Positions 3,035 through 44,675 of a stretch of DNA of 64,000 nucleotides are shown here, in pieces. Within the stretch, counting starts at the first letter, position 1. The number at the start of each line of letters is the position of its first letter. Source of the DNA: an uncultured delta proteobacterium (GTDB taxonomy: Bacteria; Desulfobacterota; Desulfomonilia; UBA1062); contig CAWCTR010000007.1 in NCBI GenBank assembly GCA_963798485.1, forward strand, positions 224,001 to 288,000, read 5' to 3'. The notes beneath the pieces are model-generated. The model was given only the letters and a program-made list of their open reading frames with translations, did no database searches and had not been told where the DNA came from. Position numbers and translations under genes: made by a program.

Positions 3035-4183
3035 TCATGTCATGAGGTAGCTGCCGATGATGAGCTTCTGGATCTCACTTGTTCCGGCACCGATGGCATA
3101 GGCCCTGCCGTCCCGCAGGAACCGCTCCAGGGGGAACTCCTTCATGTAGCCATATCCGCCATGTATCTGCAGGGCATCCGAGGTGATGCGATTTACCATC
3201 TCGCAGGCATAGAGCTTGACCTGGGCAGCAAGCATCCTGGTCTGTCTCTTATTCCCTTTATCGAGGCTCACAAGACCCTTGTATGCAAGCAGCCTTGCCG
3301 CATCGATCTCGGTAAGCATATTTGCCAGCTTATCCTGGATCATCTGGAAGGATATGATGGGCTCTTTGAACTGCCGGCGCTCTTTGGCATACTTGTGTGC
3401 AGCATCAAACGCTGCCTGGGCGATGCCGATGGCCTGGCAGCTCCAGAGGATGCGTTCTACATCAAGGCCGGAAAACATGACGGCCAGACCTGTTCCCTCG
3501 ACACCCCCCAGCAGGTTTTCCTCCGGCACCCGGCACTCTTCAAGTATGATCTCACCGGTGGGGGACGATCGAAGGCCCATCTTTGAAAGGCTCTTGCCCC
3601 GAGTATAGCCGGGAAATGCCTTTTCAACAATGAAGGCGCTCAGCCCCTTCGGCCCCAGGGCAGGGTCGGTGGTGGCATAGATGAGTGCAACATCTGCGAT
3701 AGGGGCATTGGAAATGAACATCTTGCTCCCATTGAGTACATACTCCCTGCCTTCCTTACGGGCCCTGGTCCGGATGGACAGGGCATCCGAGCCCGCCTCG
3801 GGCTCGGTAATACCCATGCAACCCCTCATCTTGCCGGATGCAAGCTGGGGTAGGTAATTCTCCTTCTGCCCCTGCGTACCGTTTCTCTCGATATTGTTGC
3901 CGCACAGGACTGAATGGGCCCCAAAGACAACAGCAACGCCGGGATCGATCTTGCTTACCTCTTCTGCCATGATACCGAGCGAAACATAATCACTAAAACT
4001 TCCACCGTATTCCGGGCTGATACCCATGCCGACAAATCCCAGTTCCTTGCCTTTTTGCCAAAGGACCTCATCAAAGGTTTCATCCCTGTCCATGGCAGCA
4101 ACCTTCGGCCCAATCTCTTGGATGGCAAAACGCCTCACAGAATCCCTGAGGATCTGGTGGTGCTCGGAAAGATCGAAATCCAT
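3035..4183 (-). CDS. Acyl-CoA dehydrogenase (isovaleryl-CoA dehydrogenase-like)
   Basis: ITEPEAGSD, NGSKMFISN, QIHGGYGY, IGAGTSEIQ motifs. Confidence 0.9.
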   Translation of the reverse strand: MDFDLSEHHQILRDSVRRFAIQEIGPKVAAMDRDETFDEVLWQKGKELGFVGMGISPEYGGSFSDYVSLGIMAEEVSKIDPGVAVVFGAHSVLCGNNIERNGTQGQKENYLPQLASGKMRGCMGITEPEAGSDALSIRTRARKEGREYVLNGSKMFISNAPIADVALIYATTDPALGPKGLSAFIVEKAFPGYTRGKSLSKMGLRSSPTGEIILEECRVPEENLLGGVEGTGLAVMFSGLDVERILWSCQAIGIAQAAFDAAHKYAKERRQFKEPIISFQMIQDKLANMLTEIDAARLLAYKGLVSLDKGNKRQTRMLAAQVKLYACEMVNRITSDALQIHGGYGYMKEFPLERFLRDGRAYAIGAGTSEIQKLIIGSYLMT

Positions 4184-37611: not shown

Positions 37612-37686
37612 GCGGGAATAACTCAGTGGTAGAGTGTAACCTTGCCAAGGTTAAAGTCGCGGGTTCGAATCCCGTTTCCCGCTCCA
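37612..37686 (+). tRNA. tRNA-Gly(GCC)
   Basis: GCGGGAA/TTCCCGC acceptor stem, anticodon loop TTGCCAA, GTTCGAATC T-loop, encoded CCA. Confidence 0.97.
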
Positions 37687-37710
37687 GCCTTTTTTCTTAA
37701 TCTCATCCCC

Positions 37711-37747
37711 CATCACTTCGGTTAATGAAGTGGTGTTTTTTCTTTTT
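37711..37747 (+). terminator. Intrinsic terminator after tRNA-Gly
   Basis: CATCACTTC/GAAGTGGTG stem followed by a T-run. Confidence 0.7.
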
Positions 37748-37918
37748 GGGCTGATACCCAAATGTGGTTTTGAGCATATGAAACGAATAGAGATTCTTCA
37801 CTTCGTTCAGAATGACAGTAAAATGATAAGTTAGGTTGTCATCCTGAGCCGAAGCCCTGAGCGAAGTGAAGGGGCAGCGAAGGATCTATAAAACCAATGA
37901 GCATTTGGGCAACAGCCC
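37748..37918. mobile_element. 171-bp MITE-like element with 17-bp imperfect terminal inverted repeats, enclosing an inverted pair of REP-like palindromes
   Basis: GGGCTGATACCCAAATG ... CATTTGGGCAACAGCCC (15/17); inner AGATTCTTCACTTCGTTCAGAATGACA and TGTCATCCTGAGC...CGAAGGATCT. Confidence 0.55.
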
Positions 37919-37937
37919 GTTTTCAGAATACACATCA

Positions 37938-37975
37938 CCCCTCCCCTTCAAGGGGAGGTTTGGGTGGGGATGGGG
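37938..37975. repeat. REP-like palindrome (CCCTCCCC...GGGGAGG...GGGATGGGG type)
   Basis: CCTCCCCTT-C-AAGGGGAGG hairpin plus G-rich tail. Confidence 0.55.
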
Positions 37976-37982
37976 TTATCGG

Positions 37983-38186
37983 ATTATTGTCCCTTTCTTT
38001 TGGCGCCAAAAGAAAGGGACGAAAGAAAAGGCGCCCCGTGAACCCGCCCTTCGGGTCCGTTCGCTCGCTTGGAAAATCCGGGCCGCGGCTGAACTCGCTC
38101 CGTTTCACTCCGCTCAGACAGACGCCGCTGTTCCCCCGGATTTTCCCGCACTCGCTCACCGGGTTCAAGGGGACGAACAAAAACCC
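37983..38186 (+). repeat. ~204-bp structured repeat element, copy A (left flank of cassette array)
   Basis: Near-identical reverse complement at 44812-45015; terminal hairpin GTCCCTTTCTTTTGGCGCCAAAAGAAAGGGAC. Confidence 0.9.
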
Positions 38187-38339
38187 TGCATGAGCATCAC
38201 TTGCGAGCCGGACAATCAAGCCTCAGGGAAAAAACCTTTTAAGATTCTTTCCTTGATCAAATCCAGCCAATGAAGTAAGCTGTAATATGTGAAGTGCTAT
38301 AGGTTTCAGAGACATATCGTCTTCAGAATTTTCTGCAGT

Positions 38340-38405
38340 TTATCTGTATTATGCCCTTATACAGAATTCTGCATTATCAATAATTCTGTATAGTAATTGT
38401 TGGGC
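38340..38405 (+). other. Putative attI-like or secondary integration site preceding the first cassette
   Basis: AT-rich stretch ending in core G/TTGGGC at 38399; 11-bp inverted repeat TATACAGAATT/AATTCTGTATA; no upstream AAC box, so not an attC. Confidence 0.45.
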
Positions 38406-38430
38406 CTTTATCAAGGAGGAGATAGCATCT

Positions 38431-38889
38431 ATGGATCTCAATCTAAGCTGGCACAAACATCTACCATTAACGGATGACTCAGAGAACAACGGCGTCTACA
38501 CAGTTGATCTCTCTCGTATTCCAAACTCCGCAGGTATCTATATGTTCTTTCGGGTCCACGGGGATTCGGCCAAGTGCCTCTATGTCGGAAAGGCAACAAA
38601 CCTGAAGGCCCGGATCAAGACGCAACTGAATAATTCGAAGCTAATGCAAGGCATCAAGAACTCGGCCACGGGAGCGCGGAGGTTGATATTCGGGGAGTTC
38701 ATCGCAAAACCCGGCCAACAAGAAGAGAGAAGTTTGTTGGCTATGGAACGCACACTGATTAGACACTACCTTTCGCTGGGTGAACAGTTGTTGAATATCA
38801 AAGGCACACGGATGGTAAAGAACTCAGTCACTTCTGACCGTCCAGAACTGAAGAGTTTCATCCCTCATGTGATTTACTTCGAGGAGTGA
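38431..38889 (+). CDS. GIY-YIG nuclease family protein (integron cassette 1)
   Basis: SAGIYMF...LYVGKATNLKARI, conserved E and N; bounded by GTTGGGCC (38399) and its complement GGCCCAAC (38896). Confidence 0.8.
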   Translation: MDLNLSWHKHLPLTDDSENNGVYTVDLSRIPNSAGIYMFFRVHGDSAKCLYVGKATNLKARIKTQLNNSKLMQGIKNSATGARRLIFGEFIAKPGQQEERSLLAMERTLIRHYLSLGEQLLNIKGTRMVKNSVTSDRPELKSFIPHVIYFEE

Positions 38890-38896
38890 GTGCATG

Positions 38897-38991
38897 GCCC
38901 AACAAGGCGCTCCAGGCGGACCCCTGGGGCCGTCAGTCCTTGCAAAGTTTTCCGTTCACCTGCCCCAGGGGCCGCTGAGCTTGGCCGTTAT
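38897..38991 (+). other. Integron attC site 1 (R' box interrupted by intron)
   Basis: R'' GCCCAAC; arms GCTC(C)AG(G)CGG(A)CCCCTGGGGC / GCCCCAGGGGCCGCTGAGC with extrahelical bases; R' GTTAT|GA. Confidence 0.9.
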
Positions 38992-39635
38992 TCGCGATGC
39001 GAAGTTGCATAATCGAATGTGATTACAGGAGGATAGAGAAACTGGAAATCACCTGGTGTGTCTCCGCCAGTACCCTAGGACGGCATGCGTGCTGTGCGTT
39101 GTGCAGCGGGTGTGAAGCCCGTCCGACAATGTACCGAACCGGGAGGAAGCCGTGAGGTGGAATCCCATCCGAGAATCCCGCTCGGTTAAGGGCTAGGGTC
39201 AGGGCAATATGGCGAGAACAGGCAAAGGATTTCACGCGCCGTCAGACGAGCAACGGACCTACAGGGATTAAGAGGTCTAAGACGTGCTTCTCATGTGTTT
39301 GCACGTGTGGGGAGGTTGCAGGTTGCTAACGTACCTGCACGGGTCCTAATAAGCCACCGGCGTTCAAGTCCCGCCTACGTTGTCCACAATGGTCGATTAT
39401 GCAGAACGCAGTAACCCCACCCCTTCGCCCGGTGCAAGACCTGGCAGGCATTACCGTAAGGCGTGCTGTCGGAGCGGTGGGAAAGAGAGGTCGGAAGAAG
39501 CAAATGCCGCAGGTAACGCTACGGATAGGGCATGAGACATGGCCCGACGCGAAAACCGGGAGCATCAGCCCCGGTGAGAGCGTGCAGACGTCCGACCGGT
39601 GTCTTGGTGCGAGAGAACTTGGAGAACCTTTGGAG

Positions 39636-41135
39636 ATGGGAAGGCAAAAGACGGCTGATAAGGCTGGTGCACTCATCGCTGACGCGCAGAAGTGGAAATC
39701 CATTGACTGGAGAGACTTAAGGCGTCAGGTCAGAAGGCTGCAGGTACGTATCGCACAGGCTGTGAAGGAAACCAGGTGGAACAAGGTAAAGGTGCTTCAG
39801 TATCTGTTAACCCGCTCGTTATACGCCAAGCTGATGGCTGTGAAACGGGCGACCTCCAACAAGGGGAAGAATACCCCTGGCGTTGACGGCGTCTTGTGGC
39901 GAAGCGCCCGAGCCAAATGGCGGGCTGCGTGCAGCCTGCGCAGACGTGGCTACAAGCCTCAGCCGCTCAGGCGGATTTATATCCCGAAGAAGAATGGGAA
40001 GAGGAGACCTCTATCGATCCCAACCATGCAGGATCGGGCAATGCAGGCACTGTATAAACTGGCACTGGCCCCGGTAGCGGAAACAACTGCCGACAGAAAT
40101 TCCTACGGCTTCCGTGAAGGACGGTCGTGTGCCGATGCAGTAGCAGCAGCATTCAATGCCCTGTCCAAGCCGAACTCGGCAACCTGGGTGATGGAGGGAG
40201 ACATCGAAGGATGTTACGACAACATCTCCCATGACTGGATTCTCAGAAACATTCCGATGGATAAGACCGTGCTGCACAAGTGGCTGAAGGCAGGGTACGT
40301 GGAAGACAACAAAACGTATCCGACCCGCAGAGGAACACCGCAAGGAGGGATAATCAGCCCGACCATTGCAAACATGACGCTCGACGGTCTGGAGGAGGTC
40401 ATCCAACGTGCAGTCCCCCGTCGAAGCCGAGTCAACTTCATCCGCTATGCCGATGACTTCATCATAACAGGCAAATCAAAACGTCTGTTGGAAGAAGACA
40501 TCAAGCCTGCGGTGGAGATGTTTCTTGCGGAACGCGGTCTATCCTTATCACCAGCCAAGACTGCGATCACCTACATCAAGAACGGGTTTACGTTCCTCGG
40601 GCAAACTTTCCGAAAGCATGGACGGGTGCTGCACATCACTCCGGCAAAAGAGGGAGTCCTCGCCCTCGTACGGAAGTTGGGAACGATTATCCGCAAACAC
40701 GTCAGCGCGCCGATGCCGGTCCTGATCAAGGAGTTGAATCAGACACTCCGAGGCTGGGCCAATTACCACCGCCACGTGGTAGCGTCGGATGCCTTCTGTC
40801 GCATCGACACCTATGTCTTCGAACAGTTGTGGCGTATGGTGCACAGGCGTCATCAGAGCAAGCCCGTGAAATGGCTGATCAAGGAATACTGGACAGCCTC
40901 GGGTCTAAAACATATATTTGCAGTACGCTCGAAAGATGCCAAAGGTCGAGTAAAAGTATATCAGGTTCTCAGAGTATGCACCATAGGCATTCGAAGGCAT
41001 AGGAAGATCAAAGCAGACGCGAACCCTTACTTGCCGGAATACGCTGCTTACTACTGGCAGCGCAGGCATGAAAAGGAAAGCAAACTGCTTGCGGCCCTCT
41101 CTGCTCGACAGATTCGAGCGATGAAGGCCGCTTAG
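39636..41135 (+). CDS. ltrA: Group II intron reverse transcriptase/maturase (RVT_N, RT, X; no HNH domain)
   Basis: WKSIDW...VRRLQVRI, TPGVDG, GTPQGGIISP, RYADDF, LRGWANY; start inferred because the upstream in-frame extension overlaps ribozyme domains II-III. Confidence 0.9.
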   Translation: MGRQKTADKAGALIADAQKWKSIDWRDLRRQVRRLQVRIAQAVKETRWNKVKVLQYLLTRSLYAKLMAVKRATSNKGKNTPGVDGVLWRSARAKWRAACSLRRRGYKPQPLRRIYIPKKNGKRRPLSIPTMQDRAMQALYKLALAPVAETTADRNSYGFREGRSCADAVAAAFNALSKPNSATWVMEGDIEGCYDNISHDWILRNIPMDKTVLHKWLKAGYVEDNKTYPTRRGTPQGGIISPTIANMTLDGLEEVIQRAVPRRSRVNFIRYADDFIITGKSKRLLEEDIKPAVEMFLAERGLSLSPAKTAITYIKNGFTFLGQTFRKHGRVLHITPAKEGVLALVRKLGTIIRKHVSAPMPVLIKELNQTLRGWANYHRHVVASDAFCRIDTYVFEQLWRMVHRRHQSKPVKWLIKEYWTASGLKHIFAVRSKDAKGRVKVYQVLRVCTIGIRRHRKIKADANPYLPEYAAYYWQRRHEKESKLLAALSARQIRAMKAA

Positions 41136-41226
41136 GAGGTATCACAGTCGGGCCGCTCCACAGGAGCTGCCTTCAAAGATGCTTGAGCCGTATGATGGGA
41201 AACTATCACGTACGGTTCTGAGGGGG

Positions 41227-43167
41227 TTGCGCCTTGAAGCGTTTGGAATACAGTGGTCTGAAATGACCACCTTGGTAAAGCCTAGCCAGCAGCCAAGTAC
41301 CGAGTCTTGCGTGGTGAGCGGTAACAATCACTGCGAAGCGTAGACAGGAAGGTGATAGGCCGGAATCGAAAGATGAAGAGGATAATTAGCCCCGAAATCG
41401 AACGTGTTTGAAGCAGTCGACCTTATCTCTCTATGGGGAAGACAACAATCTCATGGTCGCTTAATGGCAAGAACATGAGATTGCTTCCGGGGTACGAACC
41501 TACGGCATGTTACCAAAGGATTCCAAGTGAACAAGGGAGATCCGGCGAACCCAGGCGGAGCCTGTAGGAACAAACAAGCCTACAAAGCGAGGATGTTCCG
41601 ACGGTTTGTCGGAAGTCGGACTGGCTGATAGTACTCAGAGACAGGGAGAGCCTGTTACAAGGGGAAGCGGCCAGCGGGATTTGAGCTCTTCTAAGGAAAC
41701 ATGAGCTCCATACAAAGGGAGGATACGAGCCTTAATGCAAAGTAAGGATAACTCAGTCATGGGAACGGGATTAGAAGGGATAGCAGCAAAAGCTCGAAAG
41801 GAAACAAAGCTCAAGTTCACGACATTATGCCATCATGTCACCCGAGAGTTGATCTGGAAGAGTCTGAATAGCATTCCTAAACAATCGGCACCGGGAGTGG
41901 ATGGTATCAGCGTGGAGGAGACGAAGAAGACATTCGATGCATGGATAGACGAGATGCTAACATCCATACACCGAAAAGCCTACCATGCACCACCGGTAAG
42001 GCGGGTTTGGATACCCAAGCCTGGGAAGACCTCCAAGAGGCCTATAGGCGTACCTTGTATGGCGGACCGAGCACTGCAAAGAAGTGTTTCGGTGGTTCTG
42101 TCAAGTATTTATGAACAGGACTTTCTGCCGTGCTCATTTGGAGGCCGACCGAAACTGAGTGCCCATCATGCCCTATCCACACTCAATGAAATCATAGCGG
42201 GCAAGAAGGTCAGTTGGGTACTCGAAGCAGATCTAAAGAACTTCTTCGGTAGTTTGAACCATGGATGGATAGAACGGTTTGTTGAACATCGAGTCGGAGA
42301 CCCGAGGATTATAAGCTTGATAAGGCGATGGTTAAAGGCTGGCGTCCTGGAAGAGGGCGAGGTGAAACCGGTTGAAGAGGGGACTCCCCAAGGGGGGTCC
42401 ATCAGTGTACTGCTGAGCAATATATATCTCCATTACGTTTTGGATCTTTGGTTTGAAAGGGTGATAAAACCCAAACTGAAGGGAGAAGCCTATCTGGTAA
42501 GGTATATAGATGATTTTGTAGTATGCTTTCAGCTTAGGTCGGATGCGATCTTCTTCCAAAAGGTACTGGTAGAAAGACTTGAGAAGTTTAGCTTGGAATT
42601 AGAACCTGAGAAGACCCGGTTAGTGGAGTTCGGGCGCTTTGCCCAACGCGAGGCAAAGGAAAAGGGTAAGAGCCTGGAGACTATATACTTTCTGGGATTT
42701 ACCCATTACTGTACCCGCAACCGCAAGGGCAACTTTATGGTGGGTCGCAAGATAGAAAAGTCTCGATTCCGGCGGAGTGTTCAAAATTTACAGGCACTGA
42801 TGCGGGAAATCAGGCACTATTCCTTGGGAGAACAACTTGAGAAAATCAACCAAGTGCTGAGAGGCCACTATGCTTACTATGGAGTAGGTGGGAACGTTAA
42901 ATCATTGTTCAAGATTTACCGTATTGCCGAAAGATACTGGCGTAAGATGCTGAGTAGCCGGAGCCAGAAGAGCTACATAACCTGGGATAGATTCTGTTGC
43001 CTTAAGCAGGTGTTTCCGTTACAGCAGCCCAAGCTTTCTGTACCCTTCGGGAGGATGAAAGCACTCGCTGTGCTGTGAAACAAATTCTGAAGAGCGTAGT
43101 GCGGGAAATCCGCACGCTACGTTCTGTGGGGGTTGGGGCTGCCAATTTGCAGCCCCTTCTACCCGGC
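41227..43167 (+). mobile_element. Inner group II intron (class E-like), 1941 nt, nested in domain VI of the outer intron
   Basis: 5' TTGCG; domain I closing stems CCTTG/CAAGG and TTGGAAT/ATTCCAA; domain V 43092-43124; domain VI ending CTACCCGGC. Confidence 0.88.
41735..43078 (+). CDS. ltrA: Group II intron reverse transcriptase/maturase (YIDD; no endonuclease domain)
   Basis: KFTTLCHHV, APGVDG, GTPQGGSIS, RYIDDF, KTRLVEFGRFA, FLGFTHYC, LRGHYAYYG. Confidence 0.9.
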   Translation: MQSKDNSVMGTGLEGIAAKARKETKLKFTTLCHHVTRELIWKSLNSIPKQSAPGVDGISVEETKKTFDAWIDEMLTSIHRKAYHAPPVRRVWIPKPGKTSKRPIGVPCMADRALQRSVSVVLSSIYEQDFLPCSFGGRPKLSAHHALSTLNEIIAGKKVSWVLEADLKNFFGSLNHGWIERFVEHRVGDPRIISLIRRWLKAGVLEEGEVKPVEEGTPQGGSISVLLSNIYLHYVLDLWFERVIKPKLKGEAYLVRYIDDFVVCFQLRSDAIFFQKVLVERLEKFSLELEPEKTRLVEFGRFAQREAKEKGKSLETIYFLGFTHYCTRNRKGNFMVGRKIEKSRFRRSVQNLQALMREIRHYSLGEQLEKINQVLRGHYAYYGVGGNVKSLFKIYRIAERYWRKMLSSRSQKSYITWDRFCCLKQVFPLQQPKLSVPFGRMKALAVL

Positions 43168-43212
43168 GAACGGGGCGGTAACGCCCCCGACCTACCCGGT
43201 GAGTAAAAGGTG

Positions 43213-44643
43213 ATGAGAACATTTTATAGATTTCGATCAACGCATACTTTGCTTGATGGCCGCCATGAGTTGGAGAACCAAGAGATTTATTTTGCATCAC
43301 CAGAAGAACTCAATGACCCCATGGAGGGCTTCAAAGACATTTATTGGCAAGGAGATGAGGTTGCATGGAAAAACCTTATGATTCATTATCTCCTCTGTCT
43401 GGAACACGTGTGTTCATTATTTATTGTTGGAGGTAATAGCGTTGCCATCAAGACAGGAGACATTCCTGTTTTCAAGACAGAAGAACAACTGCCTACTGTG
43501 CAATACAAAGGCTTGTTCAATGAAATAATGAATAAGTTCTTCGGAAATGAAATGATTAGTCAATGTATAAAGAATCTTTCGAGCAGGTCAAGCCCAGTAC
43601 GGCGAAGTGAGTTACTGACTTATATCAGAAGTTTTCATCCATATGCTCTGGAAACTATATTTGCTTTATACGAACGCCACCACCTAATTGATAAGCGTAA
43701 AGATACAGATCAAATTCGCCAGATTGCTGAAGAAACTTTGTCACACTCCCCGATCTTATTGGAACTTACAAATAAATTTGAAGAGGAGCATCCTGATGTA
43801 GAGCGTAGTGCGGATAAGCTTTTCTCTACTGCAGCGCATATAGCTTCACAACTCGGTTTGATTACGAGATACAATGTTTCACCTCCTAACGATGATAATA
43901 GAATATTCCTCCTTTTCGGCTTCCCCGATGGGTACATCCAAAGCATTGAGCGAATTGTGTATCCTGACTGGTATGCAGCCTGTTTCATGACAAAGTACAG
44001 CAACTCTTCCGTATGGGGAAATTATGGAAATAAGCATCAAGGTGTATGCCTATCTTTCAAAGCAGTGACCGATAATGATCGCGCTTATATCAAGCTTTAC
44101 GGAATAAATGGATGGGGTAGTTCTGGCCCAAGCTATGGGATAAGAGATCATACGTTCTATAAGATTGATTATGAAAAGAAACACGTCGAAGTCGATTTCT
44201 TTAGGTCTTTAGGTCGTCTTCCAAGCCCTGTATTGATGAAGTGTTGGTATACTAATGAAAACGGCTCAAGAAGTACTTGTGCTGACGACATTTTTAAATA
44301 CGAGGATCAGTGGAGGGAGAGATACTGGACAAAATTCTACCAAGGAATAACTACGAAGATTGTGGATTGGATGTATGAGGAGGAATACAGACTGATTCTG
44401 ACCGGTTCCATTTTGGATTATAGTGATCCTGAGAGCAGAAAGCTCAAGTTTGACTTCAATGACTTGGAAAGCATCACATTCGGGATAAAAACCTCAACAG
44501 AAGATAAACTAAAGATAATGAAAATAATTGAATCGAAATGTCGAAGCGAGAATCGGAAAGAATTCGATTTCTACCAAGCTCATTATTCCTGGCAAACAGG
44601 AACCATAGAACGTAGCAAAATGGATCTACTTTGCTTTGCATGA
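43213..44643 (+). CDS. DUF2971-like protein (integron cassette 2, AT-rich)
   Basis: YRFRS...IYFASPEELNDPMEG, WGNYGNKHQGVCL, K..DW.YEEEYR motifs; followed by R'' TACTCATAAC. Confidence 0.7.
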   Translation: MRTFYRFRSTHTLLDGRHELENQEIYFASPEELNDPMEGFKDIYWQGDEVAWKNLMIHYLLCLEHVCSLFIVGGNSVAIKTGDIPVFKTEEQLPTVQYKGLFNEIMNKFFGNEMISQCIKNLSSRSSPVRRSELLTYIRSFHPYALETIFALYERHHLIDKRKDTDQIRQIAEETLSHSPILLELTNKFEEEHPDVERSADKLFSTAAHIASQLGLITRYNVSPPNDDNRIFLLFGFPDGYIQSIERIVYPDWYAACFMTKYSNSSVWGNYGNKHQGVCLSFKAVTDNDRAYIKLYGINGWGSSGPSYGIRDHTFYKIDYEKKHVEVDFFRSLGRLPSPVLMKCWYTNENGSRSTCADDIFKYEDQWRERYWTKFYQGITTKIVDWMYEEEYRLILTGSILDYSDPESRKLKFDFNDLESITFGIKTSTEDKLKIMKIIESKCRSENRKEFDFYQAHYSWQTGTIERSKMDLLCFA

Positions 44644-44649
44644 AAATAC

Positions 44650-44675
44650 TCATAACAAGCTAATCCAGCGGCGGG
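44650..44675 (+). other. attC site 2, left half only (truncated)
   Basis: TCATAAC-AAGCT-AATCCAGCGG resembles the left arm of attC1; no complementary right arm found. Confidence 0.6.

Follow-up and report, generated by a model that had tools for sequence, protein, structure and literature searches.

A group II intron inserted at the domain V-domain VI junction of another group II intron, and the recurrence of this site in its close relatives

Group II introns that sit inside other group II introns (twintrons), and the homing of one intron into another, are already known. In Thermosynechococcus elongatus, twintrons consist of TeI3 introns without an open reading frame (ORF) inside TeI4 introns and are targeted through pairing of exon-binding and intron-binding sites (EBS and IBS; PMC2882425), and in Methanosarcina acetivorans the insertion sites of nested introns lie in the reverse transcriptase (RT) coding sequence of the host (summarised in PMC4424553). 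Class C introns have no EBS2; they recognise a terminator or attC hairpin and insert downstream of it (PMC4424553, PMC7923331). Here we describe a window of 64,000 nucleotides (nt; the whole stretch analysed) from the draft genome of an uncultured delta proteobacterium (assembly GCA_963798485.1, contig CAWCTR010000007.1, positions 224,001 to 288,000 of the forward strand), in which a complete, RT-encoding group II intron is inserted into a second group II intron at the junction between domain V (DV) and domain VI (DVI). What appears to be new is this junction as a target.

Anatomy of the twintron and the exact insertion point

The inner element (41227..43167, + strand; 1941 nt, UUGCG...GGC) is a complete, endonuclease-less, RT-encoding group II intron. 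Its domain I core (41261..41502, + strand) matches the full length of Rfam model RF02005, group-II-D1D4-6 (model positions 1-225, 144.3 bits against a cut-off of 49, E 3.5e-41), a type that may correspond to bacterial class E (IIE). Within this core, EBS2 (GAAC, 41400..41403, + strand) lies in an internal loop, and EBS1 (CUCUCU, 41427..41432, + strand) lies in the 9-nt loop of the hairpin at 41419-41443. An intact RT/maturase ORF of 447 amino acids follows (41735..43078, + strand), in which the Pfam scan found RVT_1 (residues 93-323, 6.4e-31) and GIIM (residues 350-413, 1e-05) only, and no endonuclease domain. The intron ends in its own DV (43092-43124) and DVI (together 43092..43167, + strand; RF00029 at 43090-43167, 45.9 bits, cut-off 40), and in the fold the presumed branch A is bulged at 43161. 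The best 120 relatives of the inner RT in the protein database are 69-95% identical to it. The inner intron is probably active.

The 5' part of the outer intron runs to the insertion point (38996..41226, + strand). It is placed where similarity to an uninterrupted paralogue, L006, begins, and its 5' end is approximate (about 38993-38997). It contains a domain I of a different type (RF02012, D1D4-7, 39052-39193, + strand, 91.2 bits) and an RT/maturase ORF listed as 578 amino acids (39399..41135, + strand) with Pfam matches to RVT_N, RVT_1 and GIIM. The 34-nt outer DV (41185..41218, + strand) matches RF00029 from 41183 with 60.8 bits and forms 13 of 13 DV-register pairs. It is followed by the stretch TGAGGGGG (41219-41226, + strand), by the complete inner intron, and then by the rest of the outer DVI with the outer 3' end (43168..43200, + strand), which comprises a sixth G, the upper helix, the 3' strand and a presumed branch A at 43194 and matches the uninterrupted paralogue. 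This order of parts had been proposed in a first-pass annotation made from the letters alone, and the sequence, Rfam and Pfam confirm it. After 43200, the similarity between the outer intron and its paralogue stops. Circularly permuted introns (PMC8637638) were considered for the order of DV followed by domain I and were rejected, as neither intron lacks a part or has its parts out of the usual order. Class C (IIC) was ruled out for the outer intron, because its DV triad is AGC rather than CGC.

The uninterrupted paralogue, which is 97% identical to the outer intron and lies elsewhere on the same contig, fixes the point of insertion. It matches base for base across the junction, and its DV and DVI together score 68.1 bits, so that the outer intron is seen whole without the inner one. 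In its fold, DV is followed by a 3-nt linker and by DVI, whose basal helix is a six-G run paired to CCU-A-CCC. Because an unbroken run of six G in the paralogue corresponds to five G, the insert and one G in the window, the insert is exactly 41227-43167, without positional ambiguity. It lies 8 nt after the outer DV, between the fifth and the sixth G, in the 5' strand of DVI. A second pair of occupied and empty sites in the same genome, L003 on contig C3 compared to the four-copy family L088-L091, gives the same insert ends, and these two comparisons show that the inner boundaries given in the first-pass annotation were exact. The structure is a true twintron, made by insertion, as that annotation had claimed; its remark that the inner intron's own DV-DVI junction (43121-43132) resembles the target was also correct.

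The termini of the inner intron (UUGCG...GC) depart from the group II consensus, 5'-GUGYG...AY-3' (PMC4424553). The first base is U in 45 of 49 family members and G in L039, L040, L042 and L045. U at the first position goes with G at the penultimate position in all 39 members with both ends known, and G at the first position goes with a penultimate A in 4 of 4. We read the U...G termini as a compensated variant and see no reason in them to deny group II membership. The ends UUGCG..GU have been described for one intron, UHB.I2 (PMC7923331), which therefore provides a precedent for U...G termini. The outer intron has a 3' end of GGU and its 5' base is probably U, the same kind of non-consensus termini as in the inner intron and in UHB.I2 (PMC7923331).

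Recurrence of the insertion site and diversity of the hosts

The source genome, a 32-contig draft with an estimated contamination of 6.96%, contains three copies of the inner intron, one in the window, one on contig C18 and one on contig C3. Each of them follows the DV of its host intron at a distance of 8 nt, and the three host introns are different. The C18 copy shows one difference from the window copy in 1,548 aligned columns, and the RT of its host is 31% identical to the outer RT of the window. The C3 copy (L003) is 89% identical and decayed, with a broken RT gene in which the longest + strand ORF is 115 amino acids. The intron that hosts it has lost its ORF and is related to the C18 host and also to the family L088-L091. 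Of the 11 host-type DV junctions in the genome, 3 contain an inner intron, another 7 have no insert, and a contig end truncates the remaining 1.

Several side observations concern the same genome. The four-copy group II intron family (L088, L089, L090 and L091, on contigs C17, C2, C7 and C14) has unoccupied junctions, which match EBS1 of the inner intron at 5 of 6 positions and EBS2 at 4 of 4. Contig C10 stops exactly 3 nt after a host DV (L098) identical to that of the C18 host; this may be an assembly break at another twintron junction, with a further inner copy possible. A further D1D4-6 intron (L004, contig C17, about 1408-2340; 146.2 bits) starts GUGCGCC and has no DV upstream, and no RT ORF is evident in the stretch read.

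To survey other genomes, relatives of the inner RT were collected by a pattern scan of one genome per GTDB species, which gave 602, and the best 80 were kept. By RT identity these fall into 61 close relatives (58-87%) and 19 distant ones (37-44%). The 5' ends of the close loci were located with nhmmer, with at least 45 nt of upstream sequence required, and 46 of the 61 could be placed. A locus passes our DV test when at least 11 of 13 base pairs form in the DV register and the hairpin ends 6-8 nt upstream of the alignment reference base, which is 1 nt before the intron start. This pair-count test was adopted because RF00029 alone, at E <= 0.01, abuts the inner 5' end in just 7 of the 18 loci scanned, its score being reduced because DVI is interrupted; it was used beside RF00029, together with a background of 304,975 windows and a like-for-like control on the distant relatives.

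The results show that a DV hairpin lies directly upstream of the intron in 38 of the 46 placeable close relatives from other genomes. Overall, 41 of 49 junctions pass, compared to 0.51% of background windows. The first-pass annotation had proposed inspecting the 5' flanks of RT homologues for domain V, and this check turned out in favour of its claim that the inner intron's family targets the DV-DVI junction of other introns, in the three own-genome copies and elsewhere alike. Among the distant relatives, RF00029 was found upstream in 0 of 19, and 1 of 15 reaches the score of the DV test with 55 end positions tried, while 16 of 19 share the Rfam D1D4-6 domain I and most start GUGCG. The preference for the DV-DVI junction is thus a property of the close lineage rather than of distant D1D4-6 relatives. 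The longest upstream ORF was also tried as a marker of the host and dropped: it is an RT/maturase in only 15 of 37 loci, many hosts being ORF-less, decayed or truncated, and in three cases it belongs to an unrelated gene, namely MFS (L018), DUF4268 (L026) and BKACE (L083). A divergent family member from a Caedibacter record (L045) follows a terminator-like A/T-rich hairpin (about 940-993) and no DV, and its EBS1 region is rearranged.

The hosts are diverse. Their RTs are mutually 25-63% identical and form at least five groups that are less than 40% identical to each other, and their domain I types include D1D4-7 (window), D1D4-2 (L007) and D1D4-6 (L021, L015, L010). Two of the hosts are short and ORF-less (L007, 415-534, D1D4-2; L021, 406-624, D1D4-6, 184.7 bits), and the lineage therefore also invades protein-less introns. 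Some hosts have a DV of the CGC type, which is typical of class C (PMC7923331); the CGC-triad hosts L038, L046, L061 and L078, and L097 in the source genome, have a DV that starts AACCGCCG and ends GGUGGU. Near-identical inner introns occur at junctions with different IBS sequences in the pairs L017/L061, L036/L037 and L013/L053, and because the IBS sequences differ, the hosts within each pair must be different introns or variants. The record titles of the relatives name delta-, alpha- and gammaproteobacteria, Acidobacteriota, Bacillus and other Firmicutes, Nitrospirae, Scalinduaceae and Bacteroidota. Because nearly all group II introns share the conserved target stretch, the lineage can inhabit many intron classes and phyla. 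Upstream of the host DV, two Bacillus loci, L009 (286-361, 946-1028) and L010 (755-907), have additional matches to DV/DVI and to domain I, which suggests deeper nesting or tandem intron remnants.

Probable target recognition by base pairing and the rival explanations

In the window, EBS1 forms 6 of 6 pairs, three of them G-U, with IBS1, which consists of an A and the five G that open the 5' strand of the outer DVI (41221..41226, + strand), and EBS2 forms 4 of 4 pairs with IBS2, the last four bases of the outer DV (GTTC, 41215-41218, + strand). The first-pass annotation had placed EBS1 in the hairpin at 41447-41482. This was wrong: that hairpin is not complementary to the target, and it is the loop of the hairpin before it that contains EBS1. 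An alignment of junctions and domain I from 49 sequences (47 distinct) was used to count pairs across the family. In this alignment, 90.3% of 464 cells are paired, compared to 76.5% in shuffles (0 of 500 as high), and pairing falls to 31-52% when the partners are slid by 1-3 columns. Changes on both sides are seen in 9 of the 10 EBS/IBS pairs.

Because relatedness can inflate pairing counts, we also counted phylogenetically independent pairs on a tree built from the intron without the EBS region. Of 9 independent pairs, 7-8 show a joint change of the middle EBS2 base and the IBS2 base that it pairs with, and none shows a change in opposite directions (p about 0.016). For one EBS1/IBS1 position the corresponding figures are 5-7 of 7, again with none opposite (p about 0.03), and for another position 3 of 3. 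At L042, a non-intron site without a hairpin, EBS1 and EBS2 are both changed and match that site. Because EBS1 and EBS2 covary with the target and L042 matches a hairpin-free site, recognition of the hairpin as a structure is not needed.

On these observations of anatomy, exact insertion, site recurrence, host diversity and covariation, we consider it very probable that the inner intron belongs to a widespread, endonuclease-less lineage that homes to the DV-DVI junction of other group II introns through EBS1 and EBS2 pairing. In the mechanism we propose, EBS2 would pair with the last four bases of the host DV and EBS1 with six bases ending in the 5' strand of the host DVI, so that insertion would occur 8 nt after DV, and the lineage would retune both sites on a change of host type. 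For introns without an endonuclease, the route described is reverse splicing into DNA, with replication supplying the primer (PMC4424553), and because the inner RT has no endonuclease, we propose the same route here, with endonuclease-free priming probably at replication forks. The inner intron would then splice first, which is plausible because the insert splits the basal helix of the outer DVI between the fifth and the sixth G, and its removal would restore the host DVI. In the transcript, IBS2 would be locked in the helix of the host DV, and the inner intron would splice on EBS1-IBS1 pairing alone with the host DV still folded. Splicing in this state appears possible because EBS2-IBS2 pairing is dispensable for IIE self-splicing in vitro (PMC3753933). 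An unspliced inner intron would be expected to cripple its host, with DVI split by 1.9 kb. A wider reading, for which our confidence falls a little short of even, is that of a pan-bacterial, undescribed lineage of "intron-hunting" hyperparasites, which would home to the DV-DVI junction, retune its EBS across host classes, carry compensated termini, and disable or gate the splicing and spread of its hosts.

A number of points weigh against homing by EBS1 and EBS2 pairing as a general account. Eight of the 49 junctions fail the DV test, including L008, whose slightly degenerate DV scores 10, and L038, whose variant DV scores 8. Four loci (L033, L054, L062 and L083) retain only the 3' half of DV, and their hosts are for this reason taken to be truncated; L042 and L045 are at non-intron sites. 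EBS2 forms just 1-2 of 4 pairs with the hosts whose DV ends in GGUGG(U) (L038, L046, L061 and L078), which are still invaded, so IBS2 is not always used, and the -6 pair is unpaired in 15 of the 46 sequences that have letters on both sides. The RT protein or the hairpin may contribute to recognition. In the source genome, 5 of the 7 empty junctions are no poorer a match to EBS1 and EBS2 than the occupied ones, indicating that mobility is not saturating and that spread is recent or slow. The counts themselves cover the best 80 of the 602 relatives, and 15 of the 61 close loci are uncounted because of contig edges or the lack of a 5' match. Finally, we infer the splicing order, the activity, the mobility and the priming route.

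The strongest of the other explanations would make the DV hairpin the main recognition element, as for class C introns, with base pairing secondary. The insertion is always a fixed 8 nt after a stable hairpin, the hosts with a GGUGG(U)-ending DV are invaded despite weak EBS2 pairing, and L045 follows a terminator-like hairpin, all of which this explanation would accommodate. It does not account for the covariation of EBS1 and EBS2 with the target in phylogenetically independent pairs, or for L042, which has no hairpin upstream and yet has matching EBS1 and EBS2. In addition, IBS2 lies inside the 3' strand of the hairpin, so that pairing and hairpin formation are mutually exclusive. We consider hairpin recognition unlikely, and the suggestion in the first-pass annotation that the inner intron recognises the DV hairpin is neither needed nor indicated.

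The recurrence of the junction could also reflect descent from one ancestral twintron that moves or is inherited only as a composite, the inner intron having no target preference of its own. Composite mobility has been considered possible for the Thermosynechococcus twintrons (PMC2882425), but the level of identity among the host RTs (at least five groups), the differing host domain I types, the near-identical inner introns in different hosts and the empty copies of the same hosts in the source genome make it highly improbable here. The tandem DV/DVI units, with two branch-helix ends 33 nt apart, would also fit a single intron whose duplicated DV/DVI serve as alternative 3' splice sites, as in C.te.I1 of Clostridium tetani. 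This is scarcely credible for the present locus, because the two DV units are separated by another full set of domains I-IV and another RT gene, and because the paralogue cleanly lacks the 1941-nt block, which other hosts carry on its own; these findings contradict the single-intron reading. An assembly artefact joining two repeats might be suspected in a draft of so many contigs with the contamination estimated above, one of which ends exactly at a host DV (L098), but the junction is found on three contigs of this genome and in dozens of independent assemblies, complete chromosomes included, which makes the chance of an artefact practically negligible.

Genomic context and comparison with known systems

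The twintron is located in a small island (37700-44650). Immediately 5' of the outer intron is an attC-like imperfect palindrome with an AAC...GTT frame (38897..38995, + strand), which we report as context only. A similar palindrome precedes the second outer copy, L006 (about 3720-3800, - strand), and the 5' motif of the palindrome occurs once within the window. No match to an integrase family was found in the 12 flanking ORFs scanned, and the cassette that the first-pass annotation placed around the two introns is therefore at most a candidate. The island also contains an ORF of unknown function (37866-38273), an ORF with a GIY-YIG domain (38431-38889) and a 477-amino-acid ORF without a Pfam match (43210-44643). 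On one side it is bordered by a tRNA gene (37612-37683, 72.2 bits) and polyhydroxyalkanoate synthase genes, and on the other side by an aspartyl/lysyl-type tRNA synthetase gene, pgpA, cinA and recA.

The known targets of nested introns are in the host RT gene or in domain IV, whereas the target here is the most conserved stretch of the ribozyme, which accounts for the occurrence of one very conserved family in taxa as far apart as Bacillus, Acidobacteriota, Alphaproteobacteria and Desulfobacteria. The tree shows repeated changes of EBS1 and EBS2, always in step with the host, which amounts to a natural retargeting experiment. The joint change of the termini from G...A to U...G likewise probes, in nature, the contact of the first base with the penultimate one, which Chanfreau and Jacquier reportedly found in 1993 to be important in the second step of splicing. 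Host introns may be limited or timed in their activity by the inner introns. Both partners will escape annotation pipelines that discard nested introns (PMC4028801, PMC8919778). A full-text literature search, with key older papers and the online intron database outside its reach, returned no description of the DV-DVI homing site, and there is a real chance that the lineage is already known to specialists.

Among described introns, UHB.I2 (CL1) has the same non-consensus termini, with U first and G before the last base (PMC7923331). It differs from the inner intron in that its RT is of a different class and it lies after an attC site with poorly conserved exons, and no intron host is reported for it (PMC7923331). 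The inner intron is like class E introns such as Cl.be.I2 in its small IIB-like ribozyme, in carrying both EBS1 and EBS2 within domain I, and in an RT that has no endonuclease domain (PMC3753933). A further trait of class E is hydrolytic self-splicing in vitro (PMC3753933). The inner lineage differs in starting with U, in having G before the last base and in sitting in introns, which none of the 19 distant D1D4-6 relatives does, and its membership in class E is tentative. It shares with class C introns the fixed short distance after a stable hairpin and the ability to use many host loci (PMC4424553, PMC7923331); unlike them, it has an EBS2, which covaries with the 3' strand of the hairpin itself.

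Compared to the nested introns already described, the inner intron resembles TeI3 of Thermosynechococcus elongatus in being targeted through EBS/IBS pairing (PMC2882425). The Thermosynechococcus introns enter domain IV of the host, between the first and the second ATG of its RT gene, and the site here is the DV-DVI junction; in addition, the Thermosynechococcus inner intron is ORF-less, in a host that is a close relative, within one genome, whereas the lineage described here has its own RT, unrelated hosts and a distribution over many phyla (PMC2882425). As in the nested introns of Methanosarcina, a conserved feature of introns serves as a perpetual safe homing site (PMC4424553). The Methanosarcina sites are in RT coding sequence (PMC4424553), whereas the site used here is in the catalytic RNA core, where insertion breaks the branch helix of the host directly and where ORF-less hosts such as L007 and L021 can therefore be used as well.

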